A DNA stretch of 35,407 nucleotides from Didymodactylos carnosus. Its lineage: Eukaryota. The stretch covers positions 1 through 35,407 of the forward strand of contig CAJNOQ010001136.1 of NCBI GenBank assembly GCA_905250885.1, written 5' to 3'. Position numbers and translations under genes: made by a program. The notes beneath the pieces were generated by a model. It did not search any database, was not told the origin of the DNA, and saw nothing but the letters and a program-made list of their open reading frames with translations. Positions 5,406 to 30,177 of this stretch are shown here, piece after piece. How positions within the stretch are numbered: position 1 is the first letter of the stretch; the number at the start of each line of letters is the position of its first letter.

Positions 5406-6708
5406 TTTTGTATAACTTGCAATTGATTCTAAGTAAATAAGCAAAACATATTCATTTATAACTAATGGGATAGAAATACAACTATCAGTAAACCAAAAAC
5501 GGGTGCTCCTGCAACTTCAGAACTTACGATTTAGCGTATTATTACAATATAAACAGACAGGCAAAATTTATTTCGTTTTTTGTCATTTAACCTTGCGCTT
5601 GAGTGTTGAAAAAAAAAGAAGAAAATACTTAGATAAGAATTTTCAAAGGAGAAGAGTAAAAACGAGAGGACAACAAAGTGTAAATATCTGCATCTCTTTT
5701 GAAAAAGATAAAAACTATTATGGAGATGTTGTATATATGCGTGGTTAGTTATGATAGAAAAAAATGTGAAGAAAAAAATATATAAGAATACCATGTTTTC
5801 TTCTCAAAAATCACTGATTAGAAAGGGACAAAAGAATTTTTATAACACGCGGAAGTAAATAATGTTGAACTTTTGAACTTCAATATAAACTTTTATGTGT
5901 AAAAAAAATAATAAATAATAAATTCCCGATAATAGGTCAACTTCAATTTACCTTTTATAATCGTTTACGCAGATTAGAAGACTAGTCTGCAACATACAAC
6001 GTGAAACACATTATAGAATTATTATAAAAGAGCTTAATCTGTTATACTATTTGATTTTAAGCGTTTTTCGTTTGATATCATTTTTACCCCCTGAATTATC
6101 AGTATCTTACTAGCGTTGCTGACAAGTCTGAATTAATATTGCAACGTTAACTATTCAAAGAATTTTTTTATAAAATTCGTCTGAAGTAAATTCCTAAATC
6201 ATTATAAAAAAAATGTTCATTGTTAGGTTATTGGGAAATTTGTACTCATTAAATGTATAATCTTCAATTTGTTTTTCTGGGACTTTTACCGTGCCATAAA
6301 CAAGCCACTGATGAAATCAACAGCACCTCTTCTTCAAAAGCCGTGTTATTATTATAAAATTTTTCACGACCCCTCTAAAAGAATTTCTCTAGATTTTTCT
6401 ATCCAATCTTCTCGATGCTACCAAAATAGCAGTAAAAATTCTGTAGAATGTCATCGAACCATCTAGCAGATGAAAAAAAGCTGCTCGCAATAGAAGAGTA
6501 TCTGATTTTCTACTCTTGCTAGAAGCAGTATACCATCTCGAATCAAAAATACTGTAAAAGATATAAAGAAAGATCGCTCGTACAAATCGTATCGTATTAA
6601 GAATGGCTTTACTCAGGCAGATAGGTATGTATTTAGCTTAAATTGAAATTCAATGTACATATAATATTCCTGTTGCGATACTTAAGGAATTTATTAAATA
6701 AAAAATTT

Positions 6709-7135
6709 TTGAATATCTAGACTACTTGAGTATACATTGACGGAGTGTTGTATTTTTAAACGACTACTAAAGTTCAGGATAGACCTTGTTGTTCTTTATT
6801 TCTAAAAGAACTAACTGCTTTATGGATTAATACTATAAGTAAGTTACGGTATTTCGATATAGCAACGATCCGAATACTACGACAGAAGGTAAAATTGTTC
6901 TTCACGATCGTATGGAATCTTTTCACAAGAACTTTTAGTGGTCAACAAACAAAACTTTTCAGAGACTTTCAATAGTCAAAAAGACTATAAGATTAAGGAA
7001 ATGGGACGAAATACTGTTCATATTGGATAGTATCAAAAACGTTTCTAAGAGTAGTTGTCAATCGCAAATCCATCTCCTTTTCGCCATAGAAGAAAGAAAA
7101 GAAAACAGAATATAGAGAGAGAATAAACAATAGTA
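6709..7135 (+). repeat. Left TIR of the 3.9 kb element
   Basis: Direct comparison with rc(10168-10598). Confidence 0.8.
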
Positions 7136-9093
7136 AAGGATTATACAAAAAACGTGATGCTTGCTCATGATAGCCTATTATTAACTGGAATTATGTTTTT
7201 TAACAACAAAAGGACGACAAGAAAGTTAAACAGAAAAATTGTGTAAGAGTTCAAGCAAAACAGTTCATATCATCACACTTAAATACCCTTAGCATTTATC
7301 TCTTCTTAAAATCGAAAATCAACCTATCAAAATGTTTGATAACATCAGAACTGGCTTTACTCCGAAATAAAATTAGAGTCAGGACAAAAACAGTGAAAGG
7401 TTGCATCGTTATGAGAACCGCGCGTATCGATCTTTGTCTACACGAACAACATGTTGATTTCTTTTGATATTATTAACTTACTTAGTGCGCTAGCCGATAA
7501 TTTCATAGTTAATATTTATTTGATTAATTGCTCTTCATGAAATATTTACAAACTTGCTGCAAATAATGATGCCCGCTATAACTAATCACACCAGTATACG
7601 AAAAATTAATATATATACATGCAAAGTGGTTTAGTTTTATTTTTTGTTTCATTTTAATCCAGTATGTTACATACAGTGTATGAGATAAAGGTTGAAAACT
7701 TTATCAGTTTCAAATTACAACCCCATCTTTTTTCTTCTTCTTATAATACTTTAAAACTTATACCTTGTAAAGAGTAATGTTCGTGAAGAGCAGTCCATCT
7801 GGATCATTCAACGCCACTGAAATCGGAAAAATATGCGTTTTCTATATCCATACGTTGTTATTTTACTTACTTTTATTGAAAAATATTTTCTTTTATTTAC
7901 ATACAACAATCAAGAAAAATGCTATTTTTCTTTATATAAAACTACGATTTGTACGTAACAACATTGTAGCAATCGCATACGAAAATTCTAAAGAGATACG
8001 CCTCAGCTTTTATGCATTTACTTATATCTCTGTAGTGGTCGTCCACCTTCCTTCTGCGATTTAGTATTGTATCAGTCCACACAGCTACTTATAAGTGATT
8101 TTTTTTCAAAAACGCTTTTCCGAACCTAACACGACGTAACTTACCGTTAAATCATATATACAACCTTTTTCAAAAGGTAGTGCAAACCGGCAAAACGCGC
8201 TGTTCCATTCCAACAGCTTATACGTCATAAAAGCTCTAGTTATTCATGTCATAATACACACGATTACGCGATAAATTATGAACTTAGGCAATGCTGTTGT
8301 TCGTGCAAGTGGATCGCTTTGTTGATGTGGTGATAGTGAACGGAGTACATGAAATAAAATGAAGAAATATAAAACGATCCAGTTCCTGAGATCGGAACAG
8401 GAAAAGTAACTATTACCTTCGATCTGACATGAAAAATACGAGGATGACACGATGAACTGTATCTAATACAGAGTTTGTTGACAAACTCTAATTTTGGGCC
8501 ATCAATCTGGTGATCACTATTAAAATTCACAATCAATATGCTAGGAGTACTTGAGCGTGCCGTTACAAAACACATATTCGAGAGTAACACATTATTGTGG
8601 TAAAGTGGTAACTATTTCTTCATACAAGGAGTGTGATTTACTTATTTATTTAGTATCGGTATCAACTGTTGGGTAAAATGATCATCTGTACAATAAATAA
8701 TTTGGCAAGGAATGAGACAAGATATAAAACTTACAAAGGTTTCGAGACCATACTGCTAGGTTAAGAGTACCAATATCATTTATAGGAACAAAATTAAAAA
8801 ATGTCAAAATACTTTTGCCGAATTATTTACTGAAAAACAATTCAAACTGAGATTCGAAGCATCGGAACGCGCATCATAGATATCTTCTGTAAATGGACAA
8901 CTATCGCGAATATCTTCGATAGCATGGATGATCCAGAGGTGAGCAACTCCGGCTAGGTACAGCTCTAACTCAACTCCAACACTAGCTCTGCTAAGCAACC
9001 TAAACCCAACTCCAACTCCGTTTCAACTCCGAAGTGAAATCTATTCGTTCTTTTTCCTTCAGCGTGATGTGAGGTGTATCATTAGGCATGCAT

Positions 9094-9289
9094 CAGTTAC
9101 AGTTAACTGTAAAACTATAACTGTCATAACTGTAGGTAAATATTCTAGAGTGAGTCAGTCTTCTATGATTTGCATACATTTTAAGAACAGAGACATCCTT
9201 AAAATGTATGCAAATCGTACTAGACTAATCACTCTAGAATATTTGCCTACAGTTATGACAGTTACAGTTTTCACAGTAACAGTTAACTG
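9094..9289. repeat. Nested palindrome / long hairpin (outer arms ~60 bp, inner perfect 19-bp stem 9167-9185 / 9198-9216, 12-nt loop)
   Basis: Outer arms: CAGTTACAGTTAACTGTAAAACTATAACTGTCATAACTGTAGGTAAATATTCTAGAGTGA versus TCACTCTAGAATATTTGCCTACAGTTATGACAGTTACAG...TAACTG. Inner stem GATTTGCATACATTTTAAG / CTTAAAATGTATGCAAATC is exactly complementary. Confidence 0.8.
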
Positions 9290-9319
9290 GTAAAAAACTG
9301 TAACTGTTGCATACCTATG

Positions 9320-9595
9320 TATCATAGAGAGGTGCAGAATCTACCCGTTTGCGCCGACGACCGTTGAGAGAAAAAAACATTTTTTGGGGCAAAGTTTTGG
9401 AAAAACGAAGAATTATACGAAAATGCCAGAACCAGACATGTGTGATTAAACAGAAACAGTAGTTTTAGCAACAATAAAATCGCATTGTTTTGTTTCTACT
9501 TTTGTTTCATGCCAGGAAAATTTGATTATAATCTTTTACCCTTCGGGGAAATTTCCTAATCTCACGGGTAGATTCTGCACCTCTGGTATCATATG
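9320..9595. mobile_element. Small MITE-like unit (~275 bp) with ~32-bp TIRs nested inside the 3.9 kb element
   Basis: 9320-9352 ATGTATCATAGAGAGGTGCAGAATCTACCCGT versus rc(9560-9595) ATATGATACCAGAGGTGCAGAATCTACCCGTG. Confidence 0.55.
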
Positions 9596-9920
9596 TTATT
9601 ATATGCTGAACACACGTTTGTATCTCTCGCGACAAAAATAGATAAAAACCAAACAAAAGAAACTCTCGTGAAGAAAAGGAAATGGGACTAAAGAAATTGT
9701 GAACGAGACTTTTGGAGTTTGAGTTGACAAAATCTGTCATCAACTCAACTCTGGTCGTTTAGAAAGCAAACTTTAACTCTGCAAAAAAGACGCTTAACTC
9801 CGGAGTTGAGTTGTCCAGCTCGGGGACGATCAGCTGAAAACAAAATCTCTATAATTTGATTATTCTGTTAATGGGAAAAAGTCAAGGGGGAAAAAGCAAC
9901 ACTTCACTACACTATAAGGA

Positions 9921-10080
9921 CTTGTCCGCTATACCTCACTACACATCCACTATACCCCACTACATCTCACTATACCCCACTACGTCTCACTACACATCTA
10001 TTACATCCCCGTAACCACTACAAAGTCAGTACAAGGTCACTACCATAGTGGAAAAAGTGTAGTGTAGTGCAGTGTAGTGT
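9921..10080. repeat. ~10-bp minisatellite (CACTAYAYMYC units, ~12 copies) ending in its own inverted complement GTGTAGTGTAGTGCAGTGTAGTG
   Basis: Runs like ctcactacacatccactataccccactacatctcactataccccactacgtctcactacacatc ... then gtgtagtgtagtgcagtgtagtgttg. Confidence 0.7.
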
Positions 10081-10167
10081 TGTTTTTTCCGCCTTAGAAA
10101 AAGTCCAATTATCTCATGTTTCTTGTTTTCAACCACAACAAAAGGAGATGTACAAGCAAACAAACTA

Positions 10168-10598
10168 TACTATTGTTTATTCTCTCTCTATATTCTGTTT
10201 TCTTTTCTTTCTTCTATGGCGAAAAGGAGATGGATTTGCGATTGACAACTACTCTTAGAAACGTTTTTGATACTATCCAATATGAACAGTATTTCGTCCC
10301 ATTTCCTTAATCTTATAGTCTTTTTGACTATTGAAAGTCTCTGAAAAGTTTTGTTTGTTGACCACTAAAAGTTCTTGTGAAAAGATTCCATACGATCGTG
10401 AAGAACAATTTTACCTTCTGTCGTAGTATTCGGATCGTTGCTATATCGAAATACCGTAACTTACTTATAGTATTAATCCATAAAGCAGTTAGTTCTTTTA
10501 GAAATAAAGAACAACAAGGTCTATCCTGAACTTTAGTAGTCGTTTAAAAATACAACACTCCGTCAATGTATACTCAAGTAGTCTAGATATTCAAGAAT
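10168..10598 (-). repeat. Right TIR of the 3.9 kb element
   Basis: Reverse complement of 6709-7135. Confidence 0.8.
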
Positions 10599-11151
10599 TA
10601 TTGTATTAATACGATAATTCGTACGTGCTGAAGTTGCAGAAGCACCTGTTTTGGGTTTATTGATAGTAGTGTTTGTTCCGCGTTAGTTATAAATGACTAT
10701 TTTTTGATTATTTACTTAGAATCAATTGCAAGTTAAGTCAATGAATAATGTTTAGATGGAAACCAAATTAAAAAGTAATTTTTAATCTTTGAAGGCTTCA
10801 ATTATGAGAGAAATGTGGCATATGTGTGTAAACAAGTTAGCCACTAAATCTTGCTAATTTTGTTATTTTCGTGTGTAATTTTCTTCGATTCAGGAGATAA
10901 GAAAGTTTTTTTTTCATCAACGAAAGTGTGCTTTTGATTGAGATAAATAGTCGGTTTTATTTTTGAAGAAAAAAAGATATATCATTCAATTTTGAATGTA
11001 GCGAGTAATTGGTTGAGAAAAACATGAAATATATCTAAGCACAAATTCAGCAGAAAAATACATATTTTAATGTCATTTATCTGACCTAATGCATTAGAAA
11101 AGAAACAAACACTCACTGTACAGAGCAGTCTACATTTGAACCGCATGAAAA

Positions 11152-11806
11152 CTAATACACTAATTGATGAGGCATGCTGTTAGCTGTATTGAACATGGGA
11201 GCAGTTGGATAGGGTTGTTGCATTAATGGCATGCCACCACCCTGCATCTGCATTTGATAACCTTGTTGAACAAGAGGTGCACCTGGTGTTGACATCATTG
11301 GCCTATATCCGAATGTCATTCCACCGGTACCTTGTTGGTATGGATACATGTAGTTGGTTTGAGGCATTGATGTCGCTGGCGCTTGTTGAAATTGTTGATA
11401 AGGAGAACCAGTCATCGGCCCTAATCCTTGCATACCTGTCGTCATTACAGGTCGATACATCATTTGATTTTGTCGAGCTGCAGCTGCTCCCATTTGTGAA
11501 GCTGCTCCCATTTGTGCTCCCATTTGTGCTCCCATTTGTGCTCCCATCATCATGGCTCCATTTGCGGGTGCCATTGGTGATTGTCCTGGTAAAACCATGC
11601 CCGGCATTGTGGGAGGCATATATTCGAAACTCGAAGATGACGAACGACTTTGATGATATGCTGGCGCACCAGTCGAGCCAATGATACTTTGTGCACGGTA
11701 ACCATTTGAGTAATCTTGATGTAGACCACTAACAGGGTAGGATACGACAGCAGGAGAACCTGATTGACTATAACCACGACGGACAGGGCGATCAACTTTG
11801 ATTACT
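11152..11806 (-). CDS. LC-protein exon 4 (RVIKVDRPVRRGY... then an M/Q/G-rich tail with 3x GAQM repeats)
   Basis: Acceptor ttattctacAG (11808-11807). Continuous with ORF 11152-11619, whose 'M' is an internal residue. The tail is PMMSTPGAPLVQQGYQMQMQGGGMPLMQQPYP... Confidence 0.7.
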
Positions 11807-14093: not shown

Positions 14094-15400
14094 CGTTAAT
14101 AAATTTTCAAACTAAATTCCACTAAAATTTAAAATTTTTAAATCAGTATTTTTGATTTTAAAAATTAATTATAACGAATTTTAAAAATTCTCTCGTTCAT
14201 CCTATAGCATAATGACATCTTAAATAATTTCTATACCCAGAGTTTTTTGCCGAAATGCTTCTCTGAAGCGAAACATCGTTCAAGATGTTTTTAAAAATAC
14301 TTTCTACCCTAAAATTTCATCGACAAAATAAAATTTAAATTTCTCCGCCAAACTTTGATTAGGAATGACATCAGCTTTTTTACATAGGCAAGTTGATGTG
14401 CCAAGACGAAAGAATTAGCTCTTCAAATTGAAATTTTAAAGAATGGACAAAAAAACGGGTGGAAACTTCACAATTTCATATCTCAAAAACTATAAGTCCG
14501 GAACTCGAACAATTTTTGGGTATACACTTCAAAGTGTTATCTACAAACTGAGAAAAAGACCTAAGTGAGGAACCCCATTAATCCTTCGTGTCAAGAACAA
14601 ACCTCTACCCTATGAGCCTAATCATAAGTTGCTATGAGGTTATTTTTTCGAAGATCTAATTTCAAAATACCATATACAAAAAGTTGCACCAGCTTCCAAG
14701 CAGATGCCTGGAGCAATCAACCGTACCTTTTTTGACGCTCCGCCATTTCTACGCCAACACCTATTTTCGACATGCGCCTTACGAAAAATGGATTATTACT
14801 GTTCCTTTTTTGACAATCTCTACCCTATACATCGTGAGCCGCTCGGCGCTGTTCGCCGGTCCGCTGCTTGGGTTATAACGCGAAAGTTCGGCTACAAAGT
14901 TAGTGATTCTGATCTAGCAAACACAATAGGACTTCCAAACTTGACGCTAAGATGGAAGTATTTAGATTAGTGAGCTATTACTGTATTGTGAATCACCATA
15001 CTGATTCAACCGTTAGAACACATCACTTGGAACAAATATCCCACTCAGATTCAGAAGATATTCCAATTCCTCGAACAAAAACAATACTTTTTTTTCTTTT
15101 ATCTGGCAACTGCCAAAGAGTGGAACAGTCTCCTATTCTTCTGAAACAGTAGCCTAGCACCTAACATACAACCATTTAAAACAAGTCTCAAAAGCCAACT
15201 TAGTTTGAAGCAAAATTATTGCTCTTTTTCTTGTGATTTATCGTCGTTTTTAAAAATTGTTCTGATCTGGATCTTACGTATTTTGTCTTGTTTATTGTGA
15301 GTGTGTGCCGGACACATGTTCTGTTTGAGTAAAAGCTTGTGTGTTTGAACGGTTATACAATATGTAGTATTATGTGTAAAGTTGCTTTTTTTTTAAACAG

Positions 15401-16094
15401 ATTAAAGATCTGCTGATGGGATGTTCAATGTCGCCATTTCTAGCGGACATAGCTTTAAATGAAGTTTTGCTGTATAACTGGGATTATCAAAAGTATCCTT
15501 ATATTGGATTAGCACGATATATTGATGATATACTGTGAGTTTCAAAAATGGATAAAAAGAAAATCCAGGAATTAGTAGCAGATCTAAATAGTAAGAATGA
15601 TTTACAATTTCACTTTTGAATATGAAGTAGAACACAAGATAGTATGTTTGAATGTCAGTATTCAGATAAATCAAATAAGTGAAACAAGAGAAACAAGCTG
15701 ATTTCAGAAAGCAACGTCTAGTTCAAAAGTATTAAATTTTGATTCAGATCATAGCTATGCTATGAAGCAAAATATAATTACTAATATGATGAAAAGAATA
15801 ATAATATGTGATAATTATTCTTATTATATTATTAACAATAAAGAAAACGAAAGAGATATGTTAGAGTTGAAACAAATTTTAAATAACAGTGATTATCCAC
15901 AAAGAGTAGTGGTAAATTTTTTCTAGAAAATTAATAAAAGTGGAAAAAACGAAAACATAAGTGAGAAAAAAGAGAATATACAATCCTATGTGGTAGTCAT
16001 TCCACATAGACATGTAGTAACTGAAAAACTCCGGCATATCTTAACAAAATTGAATATAAAAGTATATACAACTTTGAATCGTAGTTTAGGTTAG
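15401..16094 (+). pseudogene. 5-prime-truncated, frameshifted reverse-transcriptase fragment of a retroelement (possibly Penelope-like)
   Basis: Plus-frame translation IKDLLMGCSMSPFLADIALNEVLLYNWDYQKYPYIGLARYIDDIL carries RT motifs B and C (Y-x-DD). Downstream frames are broken (MDKKKIQELVADLNSKNDLQF / TFEYEVEHKIVCLNVSI). Near 15985-16090 there is a remnant SYVVVIPHRHVVTEKLRHILTKLNIKVY that faintly resembles a GIY-YIG domain. Nothing coding lies upstream of 15400. The fragment is interrupted by the MITE at 16095-16822 and decays further by ~16960. Confidence 0.55.
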
Positions 16095-16822
16095 GCCTCT
16101 TCAAATAACTCGGGAACGCAAAGAGATATCGAGAAACAGTTTAAAAGCAAATTTTCAGGAAACGCTCCGGACAGCTCATAAAGCATAATCAAAGACGAAA
16201 AAGATAAATTTCAGCCGGCATTGGTTTAAGGTTTTCCAGAAACCTTCTGAAAAACCTCAAAGCATCAGTGTTCTGTTGGACCACTTTTTCGGCGTGATCA
16301 CCGATATATGGCACGTTTTAGGTCTTTCCTGAAAATTTGCTTGAGTCAGCAAGAGATTTGATCGAGATATAAGGATTTTAATTTTTGCTAGTAACAGACG
16401 AAAAAACGGTTTTTCATAAAAATGCCTCTGGCGAAGCTATATTCATTTCCACACAAAAAAAAATGTTGCCACTATGCTTAGGGTAGTCCATTACCTATAT
16501 TCCATGGCATTTCGAGATTCCCAGAAATGTCTACTCGGAGATAGATACGTGCCCTGTCCGAACGACGATAGCTAGAGAGCCGGGACTTGCATAATTTTGT
16601 AGAATAACGTCCGGACTATCTACGCATGCAAAAAGATTTCTGCCATTGTATGTTAGTTTTCTGAGAACGGAGCTGGTTTTCCAAAGATCTACCTGGAAAA
16701 CCCCTCAAGATCCAGAAAAAAGTTTTTTTCTGCCATAGTTCGATGTGCCCCAGACTTGGCCATAAACTGACGAAAACCGTTTCTCGATATCTCTTTGCGT
16801 TCCCGAGTTATTTGAAGAGGCG
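16095..16822. mobile_element. MITE-like nonautonomous DNA transposon (~728 bp) with 47-bp TIRs, inserted into the RT fragment
   Basis: 16095-16142 GCCTCTTCAAATAACTCGGGAACGCAAAGAGATATCGAGAAACAGTT matches rc(16775-16822) with one mismatch. The interior is non-coding. Confidence 0.8.
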
Positions 16823-17640
16823 CATAGTACCTTATATTTTGAATCCGATAGTAATACCGGAGTAAAAGAACAGGTTAGCAATAAGGATAATAAACTAGAG
16901 AAGCCGATAGAGATGAGAATAAAAAACTCGAGATATATTTAAGAAAACAACCGAGAATAAACTACAAATGACAAAGCAGAAGTTTCAAACGTTGACTTTT
17001 CAAAAGGTTTTTCATCGGCCCTTTTATTAACGTTATTTTATTGTAGATGTATTTTAAGTTTTAACATTAATTGTCTGCATGGTTAAGAAGGAAAAAGAAA
17101 AAAGGTCGTCTTGACATATGTAAATTCTTCTTACTTGGTCTGCTCTTTTGCGTTTCTTTCTTAGATCAGTCCTTTTAAATCGCGTAATCTTATACTAAGT
17201 AAGAATTGCCTAGGCAGGGGAAGAGTGAAAAGAACAAAGGATATAAATGTAGTACGTTATGTTCTATTATCAACTGTATATATTGTATTGTGTAGAGAAG
17301 AAAAGCATATTTTTCGAAAAATAAAATTTTCATTCTGAGATAGGGTCTGGAGTATCCGTGGTAAACATTTCGACCCGATCGGACCATTTTTTCGAAGAGT
17401 CATAATGTGACTGGATGAAAACGGGAGTTTTCCAGGACCCATGGAAGATCATGTCACAAAATGCTGAGCAAAAATACATCGATTTTCTTTTTCGCTCTTC
17501 TATCTCCGGTATAAATTTGACGAGGAAACCTCCCCAGGTTGCAAATCGCTTTCGGGCTAAAACCTAGTGGGTTATGGACCATGCTGATTCCGAATATAAC
17601 AATCATTTTGGCCGATAGGTCTTCAGAGACCGAATTTCTG

Positions 17641-17986
17641 GAAAATCAGTTTTTCAAAACTTCTAAAAAATAAACAAAACCTTTGTTAATGAGGCAGGAT
17701 TGTAGCACGCACATTTCTGATTAAAATGAGATACCTCCCAGCTCTACACGGTCTTTCTTTGCAAAGTTGTAGAATTTACGAGAAAAGCCCTAAACTAATT
17801 TCTTATTCTGTAGCTTTGAGCTGACAATGAACATTTAGGGTTTTTCTTGCAAACTCTATAACTTCGCAAAGAAAGGTCGTGTAGAGCTAGGATGAGTCTC
17901 ATTTTAATCAGAAATCTGCGGACTACAATCCTGCCTCATTAACAAAGGTTTTGGTTACTTTTTAGGAGTTTTGAAAAACTGGTTTC
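17641..17986. repeat. 346-bp near-perfect palindrome (arms ~154 bp at ~88% identity, 39-bp spacer 17795-17833)
   Basis: Left arm GAAAATCAGTTTTTCAAAACTTCTAAAAAATAAACAAAACCTTTGTTAATGAGGCAGGATTGTAGCACGCACATTTCTGATTAAAATGAGATACCTCCCAGCTCTACACGG... versus rc of right arm GAAACCAGTTTTTCAAAACTCCTAAAAAGTAACCAAAACCTTTGTTAATGAGGCAGGATTGTAGTCCGCAGATTTCTGATTAAAATGAGACTCATCCTAGCTCTACACGA... Confidence 0.8.
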
Positions 17987-20120: not shown

Positions 20121-20447
20121 ATGGCGGATCCAAAATCAAGTGGCGTTTATCGCATTCCACCATATTATTACATCCACGTATTAGATCAGAATAGCAATGT
20201 ACCACGATTGGAAGTTGGTCCAAAAACATTTGTTAAACAAGATCATGAAAAAGTTCTCTTAGGCCCAGAAAAACATATTATCATTCCACCGCGACATTAT
20301 TGTGTCATTGAAAATCCAGCAATGAGAGATAAAAAAGGACAAGTGCTTATCGATACACATGGACAAGTTCGATTGTTACATGCCGATTTAGCAATTAAAT
20401 TTACACAAGAACCGTTTCCGTTGTTTCCTGGAGAAGTATTAAAACAG
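20121..20447 (+). CDS. MVP: MVP-A exon 1
   Basis: ATG 20121. Donor CAG|GTAAGC (GT at 20448-20449), phase 0. Confidence 0.88.
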
Positions 20448-23400
20448 GTAAGCCCCGGACTATTGTGACTGAACAAAAATAGTTATCGCACTCATGCAGA
20501 ATGTCAATTAAAAAAATATCTGATATGGGACCTGGAAGACCTTAAATAATAATGTAAATATTCATCATATTGATGCTGAAGCCATGTTTTTCTGATTTTT
20601 TAAGGCTGTGACTCCCTTAAAAGTGATTGAACCGAATTGTGCATTACGTTTACGAGCTGTGCTAGATTTTGTTGATGAGGCTGGAACTCCAATTAAAGCT
20701 GGTGATGAATGGCTATTTGAAGGACCAGGTAAGATAAACATGTTCATAAAAATTTCTTAATATCTACGAGTAATAAGGAAACAACAATCTGCCGATGATA
20801 GACCTAATTTTCTGATCGTCAACAACGGCACATCTCTTTTTATTCCGTCATTCTTTTAGCGATCTTCGCCAGTATCATTGTTTTTTTTTGTTTTCTTAGG
20901 CACCTATTATCCTCGAAAAGAAGTTGCCGTTGAAGAACAAATAAAAGCTACGATTTTGAAACCCACTGAAGCTGTTCGATTACGTGCAAAAAAAGAAATG
21001 ATTGATCGTGATGGTCAACCTCGTGAAACCGGTGAAGAATGGTTAAATAGAACGACTGGCTCTTACCTACCATTGGCTACCGAAGAAGTTGTCAAAGTTG
21101 TTCAGCCAATTGTATTAACAGATAAAGTAAGCAAATAAGATTAGCGAGATGTTTTGTTTTTGCTAAGAGAAATTATAAACATTTTTTTTTGCTGTTTAGA
21201 AAGCAGTTCACCTTCGAGCGATACGTACGTTTAAAGATACTTTTGGTAATAAACGTTTACATGGTGAAGAATGGTTAATATATGCCAAAGATACCGAGAC
21301 ATACATACCAGATGTTTATGAAGAAGTTGTTGGAGATATCATGGTGACAGCATTAACTTCACGACAATACTGTGTTATTTTGGATCCAGTGGGTAAAAAC
21401 GGAAAGCCACAATTAGGAAGAAAAGAACTTGTCAGAGTAAGTTGATTCGCTGTTTTTGTGACAATACAATTATTCTCAATTATTTGTCGCTTTTCAGGGT
21501 GAAAAAACATTTTTCTTACAACCGGGTGAGAAATTGGCAAAAGGTATCCAAGATATCTATGTATTAGAGGAAGATGAAGGACTTATTTTAAAATGTACCG
21601 AAGCGTTTAAAGAAGATGGAGTAAGTCTTCTAACACAATGATTATTAGTCTGAGTACCATTTATAATATCCATCTTCTCTCTCTTAGAAAATTATTCGAT
21701 CACCCGGTGATCGATGGATGATTCGTGGTCCAAAAGATTACATACCAGCTGTTGAATCTGAAGTTGTTTTACGCCGTAAAGCCATTCCATTGGATGTTAA
21801 TGAAGGCATATATGTACGTGATGTAAAAACGGGTAAAATTCGATCTGTAATTGGCAATACGTATTTACTAACGGAAAATGAAGAATTATGGGAAAAAGAA
21901 TTGCCAGTACAAACGGAACAATTATTAAATTTGGATCCAAGATATTTTGAAGACACTGAAAAACAACAACAACAACAAGCTCTCATACCACCACGAGACA
22001 AATCGAAAGTAATTACTTATAGAGTACCACATAATGCTGCCGTTCAAATGTACGATTATAAAGCAAAGAAAGCACGAATTGTATTCGGACCAGAATTAGG
22101 TAAACGAAGAACGCTTTTTGTTTCGTAAAGGAAATTTCATTACTATTTCTCGTTTATATCTGTAGTTATGCTTGGTCCAGATGAACAATTTACAGTGCTT
22201 AATTTGTCTGGTGGTAAACCCAAATTTCCAAATCGCATTCGTGCGATCTGCTTACTATTGGGACCGGAATTTTCATCGGATATTGTTACTATTGAATCAG
22301 CTGATCATGCACGTTTATCATTGAAACTGTCTTATAAGTAAGGATACAGCAATTTATTCTTAGATATTTATTCTCATTCTCCACTCTTTTTGTTTCAGTT
22401 GGCATTTTGATATTAAACATGACGATAATGAAAAAGTAGTTGCAAGTATATTTTCCGTACCGGATTTTATTGGTATGTGCTAAGATCATGTCTGATATTA
22501 AGTAATTGATAATACCTTCTTTTTTTAACAGGCGATTTTTGTAAAGCAATTGCAGCTAGAATTCGAGGTGCAGTAGCTGGTGTTAATTTCGATGATTTTC
22601 ATAAAGTAAGTGGTTGTTTCATGCAAGTAAACTGACAGAGAAGCGTTTTAGAAATACATTGGTGATTAGACCTCGAAAAGAGTTTTGACTAAGAGATTCA
22701 CATACTGATGGTCAGTTTACATACAACTTAGATAGTTTGTCAAATTGTCATGAATTTTTGGCCAAATTTTTGCTTAATTTAAAAAAATAACATATTGAAT
22801 TATTTATTTTGTGTATATTTTCCATTTAGAATTCAGCGCGAATAATTCGTGCTAGTGTATTTGGCATAGAAAAAGGCACATCAAAAGTGAATAATCGTTT
22901 TGTGTTTGCCCAAAATAATTTAGTATTAACATCCATTGACATCCAATCAGTTGAACCTGTTGATCAACGTACTCGAGAGGCTTTGCAAAAAAGTGTACAA
23001 TTAGCCATTGAAGTGCGTACTTACTAAATGAAAATACTTAAAATAATTTTGATTTGTTGTTTTCGTTTTAGATTACTACAAATTCACAAGAAGCCCATGC
23101 CAAGTAAGTTAATCATTCTTCTCAAATACATTCTTTTAACGATTACAAGATTTGCATAATTCACTTTCTGTTTAGGCATGTTGCTGAAAAAACTGAACAA
23201 GAAGCTCGTGGTCATTTGGAACGACAAAAAATTCATGATGAAGCTGAAGGTAACAATGCACTCTATTAATTATTTCTCCTAAATGTTTCTTTTGTTCATA
23301 TAGCTGAGAAAGAACGTCGTAATTTGTTGTTATTGAATGCATTATCTGCTGCTGTTGAAGCAACGGGACAAGCGAAAGCCGAAGCTCAAAGTCGTGCAGA

Positions 23401-23931
23401 ATCAGCGAAAATTGAAGGTAACATCCATCTCCTGGATAATAACTAATAGCTCTAATTTTATTGTTATTTTTGTAGGTGAAGCAGCTGTTGATACCGCTCG
23501 TCTTCGTGCTGAAGCATCTAGAATTGAAGCTGAAGTTGAATTATATCGTTTAACAAAAGCACGTGAATTAGAATTAGAATATTCAAAACTAACATCTGAA
23601 TTAGAAGTTGATCGAGCACAACGCATGACAAATATTGAAATAGAAGAATTTCAAAAACATGTTGCAGCTATTGGGGCAAAAACCATTCAAGGTGAACTTG
23701 TTGATCTGCACTACTATAACATCATTCTACAACTATATATTTTTTTTTTCAGCAATTGCCACATCTGGTCCAGATATGCAAGTAAAATTATTACAATCAT
23801 TAGGTATCAAATCAACATTAATCACAGATGGTCGATCGCCTATAAATTTGTTTAATACAGCCATGAGTATGGTTGGTAATATCCAACAACCAACTTCCGC
23901 AACATCGTCCTTACTTTCAACAACCAATTAA
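20121..23931 (+). CDS. MVP: Gene span: major vault protein paralog A (15 exons, 2568 nt CDS, ~855 aa)
   Basis: Spliced translation aligns along its whole length to major vault protein. Exon 1 ORF: [47 protein letters not shown]...HYCVIENP...[12 protein letters not shown]. Later exons code [92 protein letters not shown] and the stop. All 14 introns are GT-AG (59-180 bp) and phase-consistent. Confidence 0.92.
20605..20728 (+). CDS. MVP: MVP-A exon 2 ([42 protein letters not shown])
   Basis: Acceptor ttttttaAG (20603-20604). Donor CCAG|GTAAGA (GT at 20729-20730), phase 1. Confidence 0.85.
20900..21126 (+). CDS. MVP: MVP-A exon 3
   Basis: Acceptor ttttcttAG (20898-20899). Donor AAA|GTAAGC (21127-21128). 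Matches ORF 20878-21138. Confidence 0.85.
21200..21436 (+). CDS. MVP: MVP-A exon 4 ([11 protein letters not shown]...[23 protein letters not shown])
   Basis: Acceptor gctgtttAG (21198-21199). Donor AGA|GTAAGT (21437-21438). 237 nt, phase 0/0. Confidence 0.85.
21498..21620 (+). CDS. MVP: MVP-A exon 5 ([41 protein letters not shown])
   Basis: Acceptor cgcttttcAG (21496-21497). Donor GGA|GTAAGT (21621-21622). Confidence 0.85.
21688..22099 (+). CDS. MVP: MVP-A exon 6
   Basis: Acceptor tctcttAG (21686-21687). Donor TTAG|GTAAAC (GT at 22100-22101), phase 1. Matches ORF 21718-22128. Confidence 0.85.
22166..22337 (+). CDS. MVP: MVP-A exon 7 ([21 protein letters not shown]...[12 protein letters not shown]-)
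   Basis: Acceptor atctgtAG (22164-22165). Donor AA|GTAAGG (22338-22339), phase 2. This avoids the in-frame TAA. Confidence 0.85.
22399..22472 (+). CDS. MVP: MVP-A exon 8 ([26 protein letters not shown])
   Basis: Acceptor tgtttcAG (22397-22398). Donor G|GTATGT (22473-22474). Confidence 0.85.
22532..22605 (+). CDS. MVP: MVP-A exon 9 ([25 protein letters not shown])
   Basis: Acceptor ttttttaacAG (22530-22531). Donor AAA|GTAAGT (22606-22607). Confidence 0.85.
22830..23012 (+). CDS. MVP: MVP-A exon 10 ([12 protein letters not shown]...[20 protein letters not shown])
   Basis: Acceptor tccatttAG (22828-22829). Donor GAA|GTGCGT (23013-23014). Confidence 0.85.
23062..23093 (+). CDS. MVP: MVP-A exon 11 (32-nt micro-exon [11 protein letters not shown])
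   Basis: Acceptor tcgttttAG (23060-23061). Donor AA|GTAAGT (23094-23095). Confidence 0.8.
23176..23249 (+). CDS. MVP: MVP-A exon 12
   Basis: Acceptor ctgtttAG (23174-23175). Donor GAAG|GTAACA (23250-23251). Confidence 0.85.
23304..23417 (+). CDS. MVP: MVP-A exon 13 ([39 protein letters not shown])
   Basis: Acceptor ttcatAG (23302-23303). Donor GAAG|GTAACA (23418-23419). Confidence 0.85.
23476..23691 (+). CDS. MVP: MVP-A exon 14 (coiled-coil cap-helix region)
   Basis: Acceptor ttttgtAG (23474-23475). Donor CAAG|GTGAAC (23692-23693). Part of ORF 23337-23855. Confidence 0.85.
23753..23931 (+). CDS. MVP: MVP-A exon 15 (...[43 protein letters not shown]..., stop TAA 23929-23931)
   Basis: Acceptor ttttttttcAG (23751-23752). 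Matches ORF 23659-23931. Confidence 0.88.
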
Positions 23932-25989
23932 ATAGCATTACTGACAATTTTTTAGAATTTTGTATAACCTTTTTTCTTTTTCTTTTTAATGACACAGACT
24001 GAAGAGAAAGAGATGGAAGCAACGTCTTCCACAGCGTGAGAGTGTCAGATGTATGTTACATGTTTTGTTTTTTATCATGACAGTGATATGTATTGTTTAA
24101 TGTTTTATTATTGTTGTTTTATTTCAGTACACTTATGTTGTAGTACTTTTCTTTATTTGTACGTATTTGTTTCTTTTTTTGTAGCAATTTTGTTTTATTG
24201 CTTTTTTATTCATAGAACTCATTCATATAAAAACAAAATTTGGATTCAATATCAGCATATATCGATGATTAAGCATTTGTATGTTCGCAAATGACAGAGT
24301 TGGTAATAACCATAGCTGAAGAATGAGTGAGTTCCATAGAGATCATACCGATGTGTACACAACCTCTGTAGCTGAAAAGTTGAAAACTCTGTTTAAGTGA
24401 AAGACCATACAGGATTAACAAAACTGCACATTGAAACTATTCGAAACTGTTGGCATCAAATTTGGTTCGATATTCACTTTTCAGTTCTTACGTTTGTTTA
24501 GCATGAACAACACCCAATTAATTTTCTGCAGTAGTGGTGAAAAGGGATCTTTAAAACTAAATGGAGTTTGATACAAAAGATTTACAGAAATGTTAAACTG
24601 CTTCTCGTGTTCCATTGTTTCAAAAACGATTAGATAAAGGTAATATTACTTGAGAAAAAAATGAAAAATCGAACATAATAATAATACTGCGAAATCGCCT
24701 TTGTACCCTCTAGTCGACTGCCCTAAAATCATTAGATTCATTATTAAATTGAGGTCCAAAATTTCGAATATTATTGAAATTCTTTGTTTTTACCAACTTC
24801 GGCCTCGATTTTTTTCTTAAAAAATTGAAAGTCTAAAGATTGCTCCCACATACTTCAAAAAAAAGTGTTTACTGTCTATTTGTTTTTCTTCAGTGACTAA
24901 TGTGTTGTCATGGTAATGGAAAAAACATACGAATAATAAATAAATGCTACACGCGACTTCGCCGTTTTGATCACAATAATCACGTTAAAAGACAAATTCA
25001 TTATATGTATTTCTGATTCGTTTCATCCGAAAAAAAGTAGAAGGAACGCGAAGTAAATCGTGAATGTTGATGCAAATACAATCACAAAACAAAAACAAAA
25101 AGTAATCGAAATTAAGGTGAAAACACAAAGACAAATGTGTTTCACTTTTCGTGAGGAGCAAAGAGATAACCCCAGATTATTTCGATCGATAAAAAAAATG
25201 ACCTTGAAAGATGAATGAAACACCCACATAAGACTGTAAGGTGAACATCAGTGAAAATAAGAGATATCTAGTTGTTATATCATATCATCTTAATTTTCAA
25301 AAATTTAAATTACGCTGAAATTGTCACTGTTTTCTTTGCTAAGTTTATTGTTTCACTAGTTGTACTGTGCAGAATAATTATAGCTGCAAACACTCATATC
25401 ATTCAAGAATTTTCACCTTGAAGCTGCTCTTATCAAAAAATATACTCTAGTTTTGCAAAGAAAATATTTTTTTCATCATTACAAAATTGTGCTGAGAAGA
25501 AACATCGTATTCAATTAAAACTTTTAAAGCGCACAAAAAATATATTTTTGTTTTTTCCATCAGATTGGCACAATCAGAGTCATATGCATGTTGTGTGAAG
25601 GCATGAACGGGCATATGTGAATATGTTGGAATAAGACTAATGAATAAATAAAATAGCTATAACTCAAAACAAGTTCACATGTATGTTCCATATCATCTTA
25701 ATTTAGTTTTTTAAAAGGTCTGAGACGCGAGCGAAAATTTTCAAACATGAAATATCAGTCAGAAAAAAGAAACAAATTTAGATGAGATGATGTATCTATG
25801 TGAATATGGTAAAGCCATCGTCCTCTCCCTGCAGATATTTGTTCGCTCTAATTTCATTATTTTCTCTGTTTAACGTACAGTAAAAACATTTCACTTTGTT
25901 AGTTCAAAAACATATTACAAGATATGACTCTCTGATAAACTACAACTTGATCTGATCTCCGACTTTATTTGCAAGTTTGTACTACTATC

Positions 25990-26400
25990 CATTTCAAAAT
26001 ATAGTATGGGTGATTGCGACATGTGAGCGGAATGAGCTATCGAGACCGGGTTTTCGCCATCGTGTAGCCAAGGCCGGGACACATAGTAATATGTAGAAAT
26101 CAAAATGTTTGCGTCTATCGCTGGAGGATTTCTAAGTGGATCTCTGGAAAATCAGCTTATCATTCCAGAGTTTTGCATAGAAATCTATCAATTTTTTTTC
26201 ATATATGGATAGTCCAAGGTGTTCTCTACAAAACCAGATCCAAGTGACATCTCGAAAAGCCATGGTTCGGGAGCTATGGGCGTTTTTCTTGAAGCCTTAC
26301 GACCCCTCTGTCGTTAGGCTTAATGAAAACATAGGTCACCGACTATGCTGAATTCGGTGGCAACATTTGTTTTTCAAAACACTTCCCAAAATCTAGTGGA
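25990..26400. mobile_element. Degenerate second copy (inverted) of the 16095-16822 MITE family, in the MVP-A/MVP-B intergenic region
   Basis: rc(26190-26330) contains CCATGGCTTTTCGAGAT and GGACTATC..GATTTTCCAGAGATC blocks, which match 16500-16700 of the MITE. 26049-26085 ATCGAGACCGGGTTTTCG...GTAGCCAAGG matches the MITE sub-terminal ATCGAGAAACGGTTTTCG...TATGGCCAAG. The TIR itself is eroded. Confidence 0.5.
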
Positions 26401-26782: not shown

Positions 26783-27250
26783 TTAAAGAGCACCAGCTCC
26801 ACCACCTAATAAACTTTGACCAAAACCCATGAGATTTATTGGACTACGACCATCTGTAATTAATGTTGATTGTAAGCCAAGTGCTTGTAACAGTTTTACT
26901 TGTGTTTCTGGGCCCGATGTGGCAATAGCTTGGATTGTATCTGCACCAATGGCTTCTACTTGTAGTTGAAATTTCTCAATTTCTATTTTTGAGATGTTTT
27001 GTTTTTTATTTATTTCAAGCTCATTAGATTCTCGCAAAAATTTAATTTCTGCTTCACGTGCTAATTTCAAACGTTCTAATTCGGCTTCGGCTTCAATTTT
27101 CGTTGCCTCAGCTTTTAAACGTGCTTGTTCAACGGCTGCTTCGCCTTCAATACGTGTTGATTCTGCACGACTCTGAGCTTCGGCTTTGGCTTGACCAGTG
27201 CTCTCAACGGCAGCGGACAGCGCTTGTAATTCCAAAAGAGCTTTACGAAC
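26783..27250 (-). CDS. MVP: MVP-B exon 10 (equivalent to A exons 13-15; stop at 26785-26783)
   Basis: Acceptor tgtatatAG (27252-27251). Continuous with ORF 26783-27235. Confidence 0.85.
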
Positions 27251-30177
27251 CTATATACACAAAAAGAGAAAGAAGTTAGCTTAGTTAAAGCAAATCTTTC
27301 ATATGTTAATTTGCGTCTTTCAAGGAAACTATTCTACTAGCAAAATCATAACTTATAATTTTTACTTCAAATATAGTTAACCCATGCAACGTTCCACAAA
27401 TCAGTGCGAAGAGCACTTATTAATCGCGATGCAGTACTTACTTCTTCGGCTCCCGCTTCATCTTTAATTCGTTGACGTTCCAATAAGCCTTTTGCTTCTT
27501 GTTCACGTCTTGAAGCTTCATGTTTAGCACTCGCTTCCTGACTCATTGTGGTTATCTACAAGAAAAACTTTAAATAAGTATTTTGTATTCGCTAAAAAAA
27601 CGGATAGCATTTACTTCAATGGCTAATTGTACACTCTTCTGCAACGCATCTCGAGTGCGTTGATCGACCGGTTCAGCTGACTGGATATCGATGGATGTTA
27701 TAACTAAGTTATTTTGTGGAAATACAAAACGATCACGAACACGGGTCTGAGGCACTGATTGTTTATCAGTGGATGCTGTTGTTTCCGGTATAACTTCTAA
27801 ACCAAATACACTAGCACGAATGATATTGGCTGAGTTTTTATGAAAATCGTCAAACTGAACACCAGCAACTGCACCACGAATTCGGCTAGCAATAGCTTTA
27901 GCGGCATCACCTAAACAAAGGCATCTAAAGGTAACAACTGATCAACATGAGAAAAGAAGATAAACTAACCAACAAAATCAGGTACACTAAATAATTTTGC
28001 CCCTTCTTTCTCATCGGTACGATCATTGATATCGAAGAACCAACTGAAATTAAGGAAACTCGCATGAATGTTGAGAGATGATGTTTTCATCTGACTTACT
28101 TGTAAGATAACTGAAGTGATAGTCTAGCATGATCAGCTGTTTCAATAACGATGACATCGGTAAAAAAATCTGGGCCCAATAGTAATGCCAATGATTTGAT
28201 TTGATTTGGTTTTTTTGGAGTAGATCCAGAGAGATTGATTAATGTGAAATGTTCATCAGGTCCCAACATGACTAATTCAGGTCCAAAAACAATTCTCGAA
28301 TGTTTTGCTTTGTAATCGTAGACTTGTACGGCTGCATTATGTGGAACACGATATGTAACTACTTTGGATTTATCACGTTTTGATGATTGTGATGCTGACG
28401 AAGTTGTTTTGCTATCTGAATCTTTTACTTTAACATTTCTGTCGGCTAATGGATCTCTTAATAGTAACTGTTCAACTTGTGGTGGTAATTCTTTATCCCA
28501 CAGTTCTTCATCTTGCGTTAACATGTACGTTTGACCAACGACCGCTCGAACACGACCGCTTTTAATATCACGAACATAGATACCTTCATTTTCATCTGAA
28601 TAAAATACACAATAGGTCAGAAATAGCCTATAATAACAGAAGAATAACAGTCAACTTACCTAAAGGTATTGCTTTTCTTCTCAGTAGTACTTCGACTTGT
28701 GTTGGTGGTATATATTCTCTTGGTCCTCTTATCATCCATCTGTCACCTGAAAAAATTCAAATATTTTTTAGAAATAATCAATAATCAGTCAAGTCATAGA
28801 CTTGATTTTTTATAAGAAAGCATCGATAGTTCATCTACATTAAAATCGATATTTTACTACCCTGTGCAAACCACTGACAATAAGCCAAATCTCTTCGTCC
28901 TACCTGGCATACGTGGCCCTTGATCTTTTTCGTCGTCATCGAATGATTCAATACATTTCAATATAACACCTTCGTCTTCGCCCAATATGTATACATCTTG
29001 AATTCCTTTTTCTAATCGTTCACCAGGTTGTAGAAAAAATGATTTTTCGCCAACAACTAATTTCTTTTTACCCAACTGATTTTTACCATCAGCTAAAAAA
29101 GAAGTCATGAACAATTATAATCTCTCACTCACCGTTATACATTTAACGATCTTACCTGAAACTGGATTTAAAATGACACAATATTGTCGTGAATTGAGCG
29201 TTGTTACATCAACATTGGCTACAAGTTCTTCATAAACATTTAGAATATGTGTTTCAGTTTGTTCTGTTGTCAATAACCATTCGTCACCATTTTTTCGTTG
29301 TTGACCGAAATCATCTGTGAATGTTTTTAGTGCACGTAGATGCAAAGCTCTTTTATCTGTTAGAACGTAAGCATTTTCAACGTTGACCACTGTTTCATAA
29401 GCCAATGGTAAATAGGCACCCGATTTTTTAACTAACCAGTTTTCACCGGTTACACGACGTTGACCCATTCGATCAATTATTTCTTTTTTAGCACTTAAAC
29501 GTATTGCTTGATTTGTACCAATCACAGTAGCACGAATTTGTTCTTCAACAGATACTTCTTTGCGTGGTGTGTAAGTTCCTAATAAACAAAGTTAGACGAT
29601 CAATGGTACTGAATGAATGTTTGATAAATATAAAGTTATTTACCTGGTCCTTCAAATAGCCATTCATCTCCTGCTTTTCGTTGCTCTCCATTATCATCAA
29701 AATCCAAAACAGCTTTTAATCTTAATGCGGAATTAGCCACAACATGTTTCAACGGTGTAACAGGCTAGAATTATGGAAACAGTTACTACCCAAAAACACC
29801 TTTAATAGTATAGACATTCAATGTACCTGTCTTAAAATTTCACCAGGATACAAGGGAAATGGTTCTTTATAATCTTTTTCAAGTCTTATATCTAAATCGG
29901 CATGTGATAATCTTGCTTGGCCATTTTGGTCAAACTGTACTACTCCAGCTTCATTTTTCACCACAGGATTTTCAACAACACAGTAGTGTCTTGGTGGTAC
30001 AGTGATCATTTTCTCCGGTCCAATGGTAACTGTTTCATTATCTTGTTTAATAAATGTTTTTGGTCCCAATTCCAATCGTGATACATTGGTATTTTGATCC
30101 AACACATGAATATAATAATATGGTGGAATACGATAAACGGGACCCGTCTGAGGTGCTGAACTTTTGGAAGACGACAT
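26783..30177 (-). CDS. MVP: Gene span: major vault protein paralog B (10 exons, 2619 nt CDS, ~872 aa)
   Basis: Minus-strand ATG at 30177. Spliced translation: [42 protein letters not shown]...GEILRQ | [41 protein letters not shown] | TYTPRKEV...YCVILNPVS | [25 protein letters not shown]... | [14 protein letters not shown]...IPL | [39 protein letters not shown]...[13 protein letters not shown]...LSYN | [25 protein letters not shown] | [31 protein letters not shown]...AIE | [14 protein letters not shown]... | [19 protein letters not shown]...[33 protein letters not shown]...*. It is MVP along its full length, and in the [11 protein letters not shown]...[14 protein letters not shown] region it is closer to vertebrate MVP than copy A is. 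Confidence 0.9.
27442..27555 (-). CDS. MVP: MVP-B exon 9 ([38 protein letters not shown]; equivalent to A exons 11+12)
   Basis: Acceptor ttcttgtAG (27557-27556). Donor GAA|GTAAGT (27441-27440). Confidence 0.8.
27615..27910 (-). CDS. MVP: MVP-B exon 8 (equivalent to A exons 9+10)
   Basis: Acceptor ttgtttAG (27912-27911). Donor GAA|GTAAAT (27614-27613). In frame with ORF 27570-27755. Confidence 0.82.
27970..28043 (-). CDS. MVP: MVP-B exon 7 ([26 protein letters not shown])
   Basis: Acceptor aatttcAG (28045-28044). Donor G|GTTAGT (27969-27968). 74 nt, the same length as A exon 8. Confidence 0.8.
28100..28595 (-). CDS. MVP: MVP-B exon 6 (equivalent to A exons 6 (part) + 7)
   Basis: Acceptor ttttattcAG (28597-28596). 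Donor AA|GTAAGT (28099-28098), which avoids the TAA at 28098-28096. In frame with ORF 28096-28524. Confidence 0.82.
28660..28746 (-). CDS. MVP: MVP-B exon 5 ([28 protein letters not shown]-)
   Basis: Acceptor ttttttcAG (28748-28747). Donor TTAG|GTAAGT (28659-28658). Confidence 0.8.
28904..29092 (-). CDS. MVP: MVP-B exon 4 ([64 protein letters not shown])
   Basis: Follows a 63-bp phase-1 intron (29093-29155) that contains an in-frame TAA. Acceptor ttttttAG (29094-29093). Donor CCAG|GTAGGA (28903-28902), supported by the conserved PGDRW across the junction. Confidence 0.75.
29156..29578 (-). CDS. MVP: MVP-B exon 3 (equivalent to exons 3+4 of copy A, no internal intron)
   Basis: Acceptor ttattAG (29580-29579). 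Donor TCAG|GTAAGA (GT at 29155-29154). In frame with ORF 29115-29525. Confidence 0.82.
29644..29764 (-). CDS. MVP: MVP-B exon 2
   Basis: Acceptor ctAG at 29766-29765. Donor CCAG|GTAAAT (GT at 29643-29642), phase 1. Confidence 0.82.
29827..30177 (-). CDS. MVP: MVP-B exon 1
   Basis: ATG 30177-30175. Donor CAG|GTACAT (GT at 29826-29825). Matches ORF 29818-30177. Confidence 0.88.

Follow-up and report, generated by a model that had tools for sequence, protein, structure and literature searches.

The question at this locus is which retroelement left a decayed reverse transcriptase (RT) reading frame in the genome of Didymodactylos carnosus, and how much of that element survives beside the inverted-repeat unit at its broken end. 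The DNA under study is a stretch of 35,407 nucleotides (nt) (GenBank assembly GCA_905250885.1, contig CAJNOQ010001136.1), which we analyzed whole and call the window. An initial annotation, made from the sequence alone, had read 15401-16960 as a truncated RT pseudogene, suggested that it was a Penelope-like element (PLE), and proposed that pieces of a GIY-YIG endonuclease tail survived on both sides of a nested miniature inverted-repeat transposable element (MITE). We find that 15389-16094 is very probably a fragment of a dead copy of a canonical, nuclease-bearing PLE, from a family present in D. carnosus. The copy ends within the linker preceding the nuclease, and the nuclease core itself is absent (Table 1).

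The RT block derives from a Penelope-like element

The RT motif B/C block recognized by the initial annotation is real. The region encoding MGCSMSPFLADIALNEVLLYNWDYQKYPYIGLARYIDDIL matched P0004, a D. carnosus PLE protein, far above chance (tblastn E 2e-62; blastp E 5.5e-81), with 83% and 82% identity in two frames over 139-142 amino acids (aa), and the tblastn alignments of two further relatives, P0005 and P0006, extended to 16091. When all relatives were compared by tblastn with the whole window, 15389-16091 was the sole matching region. A 736-position PLE profile made from the protein search matches scored 53.7 bits at 15389-15622 (profile positions 387-463) and 71.4 bits at 15606-16112 (positions 458-623), 125 bits in total; elsewhere in the window all six frames stayed at 0 bits or less, the best remaining domain having E 0.17. 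A weak tblastn match to the RT thumb at 8510-8557(-) was set aside, as the profile scan did not support it. Pfam RVT_1 was matched at profile positions 119-174 (E 7.9e-5) with 22.9 bits, under the 29.6-bit cut-off, a weak score explained by the survival of motifs B/C alone.

Relatives of the fragment are found both within D. carnosus and well beyond it. Queried with the repaired translation, a set of 5.8 billion proteins yielded two matches, both from D. carnosus (E 2e-29 and 3e-27), and a longer query built from L001, a D. carnosus contig with a related PLE, gave 102 matches at E <= 0.001. The best six of these were again from D. carnosus, and the remainder came from many invertebrates and metagenomes; metagenome scans found no relatives of P0004. 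At the DNA level, L001 3478-4129 matches the fragment at 66% (blastn E 1e-73). The window is AT-rich and eukaryotic in character, with a GC content of about 34%, compared to 33.5% reported for D. carnosus (PMC7943196). This agreement, the species of the closest proteins, and two further non-coding repeats that the window has in common with D. carnosus contigs all fit a host that is this bdelloid rotifer or a very close relative, in keeping with the mention of bdelloids in the initial annotation.

All significant relatives have the PLE layout, of which the canonical nuclease-bearing form, including N-terminal GxKF/Y and DKG motifs, has been described by Craig et al. 2021 (PMC8557442). The N-termini of P0002-P0005 carry IPADKGG (DKG) and GLNF/GLSF (GxKF/Y-like), followed by RT, thumb and linker, while P0006, P0007 and P0104-P0106 carry a C-terminal nuclease motif of the form VYG..CxC..YTGET..H..H. 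Pfam GIY-YIG was matched by P0013 with 26.8 bits, above the 22.6-bit cut-off, and by P0006 (22.2 bits) and P0042 (21.0 bits) just below it. In an iterated search with the C-terminus of P0006, 86 of the sequences among the 103 matched proteins proved to have a linker plus GIY-YIG region. Because close and distant relatives alike have this C-terminal nuclease, the Penelope-like call of the initial annotation is supported, and an origin from a long interspersed nuclear element (LINE) or a long terminal repeat (LTR) element is excluded.

A LINE origin deserves mention because the C-terminal remnant of a LINE ORF2 (open reading frame 2) lies upstream on the same strand (Table 1), so that the RT block could be read as belonging to that LINE and the whole stretch as one non-LTR element. 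The order of domains is wrong for this, however, with the C-terminal LINE tail coming before the RT block, and what follows YIDD, a thumb and a linker, is specific to PLEs. Two LINE RTs that had been found for the neighboring element and served as a control, P0107 and P0108, produced no match to the fragment at E <= 10, compared to E 5.5e-81 for P0004, so that the clustering with LINE or LTR elements named by the initial annotation as the argument against its call was not found. On the domain order and the lack of similarity to LINE RTs we rejected this reading, which has almost no chance of being correct. The LINE remnant is a separate retroelement whose 14638-14967 portion matches the region following RVT_1 in P0107 (E 5.9e-15) and P0108 (8e-7) and whose tail motif, ..WNSL..FKTSLKSQL, can be read by eye to about 15215. 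This dead LINE possibly begins at ~12720, and about 170 nt separate its end from the PLE fragment. Insertions of Penelope copies into non-LTR elements have also been reported from Adineta vaga (PMC3846280).

The copy is truncated and interrupted by stops

Homology to PLEs begins abruptly at 15389, at residue 354 of P0004 and position 387 of the 736-position profile, which agrees with the 5' truncation near ~15400 in the initial annotation. Roughly the first two thirds of the PLE ORF are absent from this copy, and the N-terminal GxKF/Y and DKG motifs are missing because of the truncation. Within the part that remains, the P, L and A of SPFLAD and the Y..DD are invariant in the alignment of the fragment with its relatives.

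The fragment is a frameshifted and decayed pseudogene, as had been proposed, and we counted four in-frame stops and one frameshift in 15389-16094. VSKMDKKKIQELVADLNSKNDLQF continues the frame of MGCSMSPFLADIALNEVLLYNWDYQKYPYIGLARYIDDIL past the first TGA, which stands directly after YIDDIL. The frame then changes at one extra base near 15611, where a switch between two tblastn segments is seen with every relative, and the new frame encodes TFEYEVEHKIVCLNVSIQINQISETRETS up to a second TGA at a position where relatives have Trp. Past this stop, the reading continues as FQKATSSSKVLNFDSDHSYAMKQNII...NSDYPQRVVVNFF, is interrupted by a TAG, resumes as KINKSGKNENISEKKENIQSYVVVIPHRHVVTEKLRHILTKLNIKVYTTLNRSLG, and ends at the TAG at 16092-16094. 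Protein homology and DNA homology to L001 both end at 16090-16091, 4 nt short of the left inverted repeat at 16095.

Table 1. Features of the PLE fragment, the inverted-repeat insert and the adjoining LINE remnant in the window
Feature	Positions	Strand	Basis or remark
LINE (non-LTR) ORF2 C-terminal remnant	14638..15215	+	separate retroelement upstream of the PLE piece
PLE ORF fragment, decayed, truncated 5' and 3'	15389..16094	+	RT motif B to RT-nuclease linker; profile positions 387-623 of 736
RT motif 4(B)/5(C) block	15416..15535	+	YIDD at 15518-15529; peptide MGCSMSPFLADIALNEVLLYNWDYQKYPYIGLARYIDDIL
In-frame TGA directly after YIDDIL	15536..15538	+	Leu in relatives
Frameshift, one extra base near 15611	15609..15616	+	within conserved DLQFTFEYE motif
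In-frame TGA	15699..15701	+	Trp in relatives (TSW[FY]RK)
In-frame TAG	15924..15926	+	thumb-linker region
Conserved PLE linker upstream of GIY-YIG nuclease, SYVVVIPHRHVVTEKLRHILTKLNIKVYTTLNRSLG	15984..16091	+	linker+nuclease profile positions 4-39, 16 bits
Candidate target-site duplication AGGTTAG, left copy	16088..16094		abuts left inverted repeat
In-frame TAG ending the linker reading	16092..16094	+	translation
Left terminal inverted repeat of non-coding element	16095..16142		48 nt, 47/48 (98%)
Probable full inserted unit, 777 nt	16095..16871		727 nt plus 50 nt past right repeat; diverged copy and 7-nt repeat
Right inverted repeat	16774..16821		48 nt, 47/48 with left arm
Candidate target-site duplication AGGTTAG, right copy	16872..16878		50 nt past right repeat
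A/K-rich stretch including LEKPIEMRIKNSRY (16895-16936)	16879..16960	+	tblastn, profile and blastn at noise under both excision models
Partial, diverged copy matching the insert's right half	25979..26374	-	blastn 61%, E 3e-21

The surviving 3' end is linker and the nuclease core is absent

The initial annotation had placed remnants of the GIY-YIG nuclease both before and after the insert. A linker+nuclease profile of 165 positions, built from the 86 sequences noted above, was matched by the peptide before the insert at positions 4-39 alone (16 bits). These positions hold IP..-..TE.L..IL....I.V, a conserved sequence upstream of the nuclease core. The linker at 15984-16091 is 59% identical to both P0005 and P0006 and 64% identical to the L001 translation. 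Judged from this alignment, SYVVVIPHRHVVTEKLRHILTKLNIKVY, which had been taken for part of the nuclease, is the conserved linker upstream of it and not the nuclease itself.

After the insert, the same profile, run in six frames over the post-insert, insert and excised sequences, found nothing beyond the linker and gave 0 bits or less for the post-insert DNA. From 16879 onwards, over a frame-dependent 1.4-1.7 kb or so, none of the three forward frames gave a Pfam domain, and Pfam detected no GIY-YIG in the frames on which the earlier proposal had relied. Searching by tblastn with the C-termini of the D. carnosus family revealed no continuation, whether the insert was excised at the ends of its inverted repeats or at the candidate 7-nt duplication. 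Post-junction DNA compared with the L001 region following ..NRTIG scored 9, against a shuffle mean of 10.5, and L002 and L003, which carry the nuclease of the P0006 subfamily, have nothing in common with the post-insert region. LEKPIEMRIKNSRY, proposed as the second half of the nuclease tail, has no detectable homology; at best it would be a piece of a low-complexity, K/N-rich linker, indistinguishable from chance. The surrounding 16879-16960 is possibly a degenerate linker stretch, although chance explains it equally well.

A nuclease core, if present, would be visible, because the RT part of the copy is only moderately decayed (83% protein identity). The core is absent from this copy, most likely by deletion.

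The absence of a nuclease core invites comparison with the Athena/Coprina elements, which are PLEs without a nuclease that are associated with telomeres and carry reverse-complement telomeric repeats along with hammerhead motifs. The fragment resembles them in having an RT of the same superfamily, and Athena is likewise found in bdelloid hosts. In contrast to those elements, this copy keeps the linker leading into a nuclease, and members of its family (P0006, P0007 and P0104-P0106) possess the nuclease. The locus lies between ordinary genes, vault protein genes among them, and we found no telomeric repeat in the window, whether of the TGTGGG type or in other telomere-like arrays. The telomeric reading was rejected for want of such a repeat, and an Athena-like origin is very improbable. 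The association with telomeres raised by the initial annotation, being a trait of nuclease-less, Athena-type PLEs, does not carry over to this nuclease-bearing family.

An inverted-repeat element abuts the broken reading frame

The initial annotation had described a 728-bp MITE at 16095-16822. Its inverted repeats and left end were confirmed, with a 25-mer of the arms occurring in the two arms only (0 expected by chance). The unit bounded by the inverted repeats is 727 bp long, not 728, and the right limit was probably set about 50 nt too short. A diverged copy elsewhere in the window (Table 1) remains similar past the right repeat, with 21/25 identities at 16832-16857, a score matched in 1/2000 shuffles and in 0/1915 random window pieces. 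On this similarity, 16822-16857 is assigned to the inserted repeat and not to the retroelement, so that the repeat would run ~36 nt or more past its right arm. No direct repeat was found immediately outside the arms. The heptamer AGGTTAG, which abuts the left arm, recurs 50 nt past the right one, with an empirical chance of 0.8-2%. Because of the second-copy similarity past the right repeat and the recurrence of AGGTTAG, we propose with moderate confidence that the inserted unit is 16095-16871, with a candidate 7-bp target duplication. The longest ORF in this insert, taken at 727 to 777 nt, is at most 58 aa, and a metagenome scan detected no copies of the element.

On the reading of the initial annotation, the insert cleanly splits one PLE, with a GIY-YIG tail surviving in pieces on either side of the 728-bp MITE. 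The ORF does break off exactly at the left inverted repeat, as a split would predict. Two weaker resemblances also point in that direction: once 16095-16878 is removed, L001 and the window both have a TAATAAA..AGAA at nearly equal distance from the junction, and an NK dipeptide lines up with the M[LV]NK of the family. Against this stand the silence of both Pfam GIY-YIG and the linker+nuclease profile after the insert, a best post-junction DNA score below the shuffle mean, and the lack of C-terminal tblastn matches anywhere in the window. Moreover, the peptide before the insert aligns with the linker rather than the GIY/YIG core, and 16822-16857 belongs with the inserted repeat. We therefore consider a split nuclease tail improbable. 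Since recognizable PLE sequence lies to the left of the insert only, it is not demonstrable that the insert split the retroelement.

Alternatively, the inverted-repeat unit may never have transposed into the PLE, the junction having instead been formed by a deletion or an ectopic recombination that joined an unrelated repeat. Such an origin would fit the lack of a target duplication right at the inverted-repeat ends and of recognizable PLE sequence on the right side, and active deletion and turnover of transposable elements have been reported for bdelloid genomes (PMC3846280). However, the break lies within 4 nt of the first base of an inverted repeat matching at 47/48, and the unit is flanked by a direct repeat of 7 nt, its right limit falling where second-copy similarity fades. 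We regard this alternative as unlikely, yet as carrying some weight.

Other hairpin-type sequences lie near the PLE copies. A 343-nt foldback at 17643-17985 (152-nt arms, 88% complementary, 39-nt loop), with a sub-threshold Rfam match to MIR9555, looks like another hairpin-type repeat. In L001, the decayed nuclease region of the related PLE copy holds a hairpin-type insert at 4335-4486 with sub-threshold Rfam matches to miRNA families. PLE remnants in the D. carnosus genome seem to have been struck repeatedly by hairpin elements.

Proposed history of the locus

An insertion of the inverted-repeat element into an older PLE copy would fit the following sequence of events. The intact parent would have been a single-ORF, canonical, nuclease-bearing PLE. 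Such elements spread by target-primed reverse transcription, in which the RT, starting at the 3' end, copies the element RNA at a target nicked by the nuclease, and their copies are often 5'-truncated (PMC8557442, PMC3846280). The copy in the window, which lacks everything upstream of RT motif B, was presumably truncated at its 5' end upon insertion, and the four in-frame stops and the frameshift would have accumulated afterwards. The inverted-repeat element would have inserted later, cutting the ORF in the linker. That the PLE came first is suggested by the ORF breaking off exactly at the left inverted repeat. The same chronology, retroelement first and MITE later, had been given by the initial annotation; we infer it as the simplest and most reasonable reading. 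Since synthesis of a PLE copy starts at the RNA 3' end, one that ends in the middle of its ORF on the 3' side must have been cut after insertion, and the nuclease-coding part and the 3' end were probably deleted, perhaps later, in a separate event. The site before the arrival of the inverted-repeat element would have read TTTAGGTTAG-CAATAAGG, without the 777-nt unit, and with limits of 16095-16871/78 the empty site would be GTTTAGGTTAGCAATAAGG.

Some points weigh against this account or the assignment beneath it. The nuclease region could already have been gone when the inverted-repeat unit arrived. Furthermore, this copy lacks the structural hallmarks of PLE insertions: no pseudo-LTR, partial tandem or hammerhead ribozyme was found in the window, nor any direct repeat family of >= 40 nt, and neither strand has a second PLE fragment. 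Rfam found no hammerhead at E <= 1 in the window or in L001-L003, but as none of these stretches is known to hold a pseudo-LTR, the missing hammerhead says little about the family. At the level of the copy, DKG, nuclease, pseudo-LTR and hammerhead are all wanting because the copy is a fragment. Its proper filing is as a fragment derived from an endonuclease-bearing (EN+) PLE, and not as an element.

Comparison with known elements

EN+ Penelope elements of the Penelope/Poseidon group have been described in bdelloids as Pen1-Pen6_Av of Adineta vaga (Arkhipova et al. 2013, PMC3846280), and catalogues of PLEs exist for D. carnosus (Nowell et al. 2021, PMC7943196; Craig et al. 2021, PMC8557442). 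Like the canonical EN+ PLEs of bdelloids, the copy described here is 5'-truncated, decayed by stops and frameshifts, and located in or beside a non-LTR element; unlike them, it has no nuclease, pseudo-LTR or hammerhead motif. Neptune/Nematis elements are told apart from Penelope/Poseidon by a conserved, zinc-finger-like CX2-5CxxC motif within the RT-endonuclease linker. P0005, P0006, P0007, P0104 and P0105 resemble Penelope/Poseidon in lacking a conserved Cys-rich linker, each having at most one Cys in this region; a point of difference is the non-conserved C-x7-C-x-C in the linker of the L001 translation. Clade membership is defined by RT phylogeny; by linker and layout, the family would be a candidate for Penelope/Poseidon rather than Neptune/Nematis. 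The family also departs from the textbook GIY...YIG in that its nuclease reads VYG...YTGET.

The Naiad/Chlamys PLEs, which have an N-terminal GIY-YIG, have been reported in D. carnosus too (PMC8557442). They share a PLE RT with the present family and are often 5'-truncated, so that a missing C-terminal nuclease can mislead. Naiads have DKA and no C-terminal nuclease, whereas this family has DKG (IPADKGG) and, in P0006, P0007 and P0104-P0106, the nuclease.

The insert, in turn, resembles MITEs in its near-perfect, 48-nt terminal inverted repeats, its length of about 0.73-0.78 kb and its diverged second copy. It differs from them in lacking a duplication at the ends of the inverted repeats, its candidate duplication being one of 7 nt placed farther out on the right, and in running about 36-50 nt past the right arm, which makes it asymmetric. 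More speculatively, the insert may represent an undescribed, non-autonomous family of D. carnosus DNA elements with asymmetric termini, a right end ~50 nt past the repeat and a 7-bp duplication, and, separately, the PLE family, with its VYG...YTGET core and variable linker, may form its own lineage within the EN+ PLEs instead of being plain Penelope/Poseidon. We think this rather unlikely.

Surroundings of the fragment

Two major vault protein genes (Pfam Vault, Vault_2/3/4 and MVP_shoulder) stand tail to tail at 20121-23930 (+) and 26783-30177 (-). The exons of the two genes make up inverted-repeat arms with 73-86% identity, and the pair may be a palindromic gene pair of the bdelloid type. 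The diverged copy of the inverted-repeat element sits in the 2.8-kb spacer between them.

A 3.9-kb unit at 6692-10611, bounded by 447-nt inverted repeats of 99% identity (6692-7138 and 10165-10611), probably represents a DNA transposon or foldback element of young age; a hairpin inside it (9111-9271, 43-nt arms) gave sub-threshold Rfam matches to plant miRNA families. Another inverted repeat pair, 32506-32691 and 33214-33399, has arms of 186 nt that are 91% complementary and 522 nt apart. Among dispersed repeats, a non-coding one at 1062-1438 corresponds to L001 85-469 (64%, E 8e-36), and short repeats at 24743-24824 and 32317-32390 match L002 3792-3867. Finally, long Q/M/G/P-rich ORFs at 11152-11619 (-) and 3205-3801 (-) have no Pfam match and probably represent exons of host genes of low complexity; one of them contains a tandem array of 12 nt (11503-11547).

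Meaning for the genome and for PLE annotation

The sequence is ordinary and its kind is already known: a further decayed copy of a PLE, in a genome whose PLEs have already been catalogued (PMC7943196, PMC8557442), with little import beyond annotation. Together, the LINE tail, the PLE fragment, the inverted-repeat insert and the foldback make up a typical nest of dead mobile elements between ordinary genes. For scans of other genomes, the locus offers a caution, in that a conserved peptide directly following the RT thumb in a PLE is linker and not GIY-YIG nuclease, and a nuclease call requires a profile match to the GIY...YIG core.

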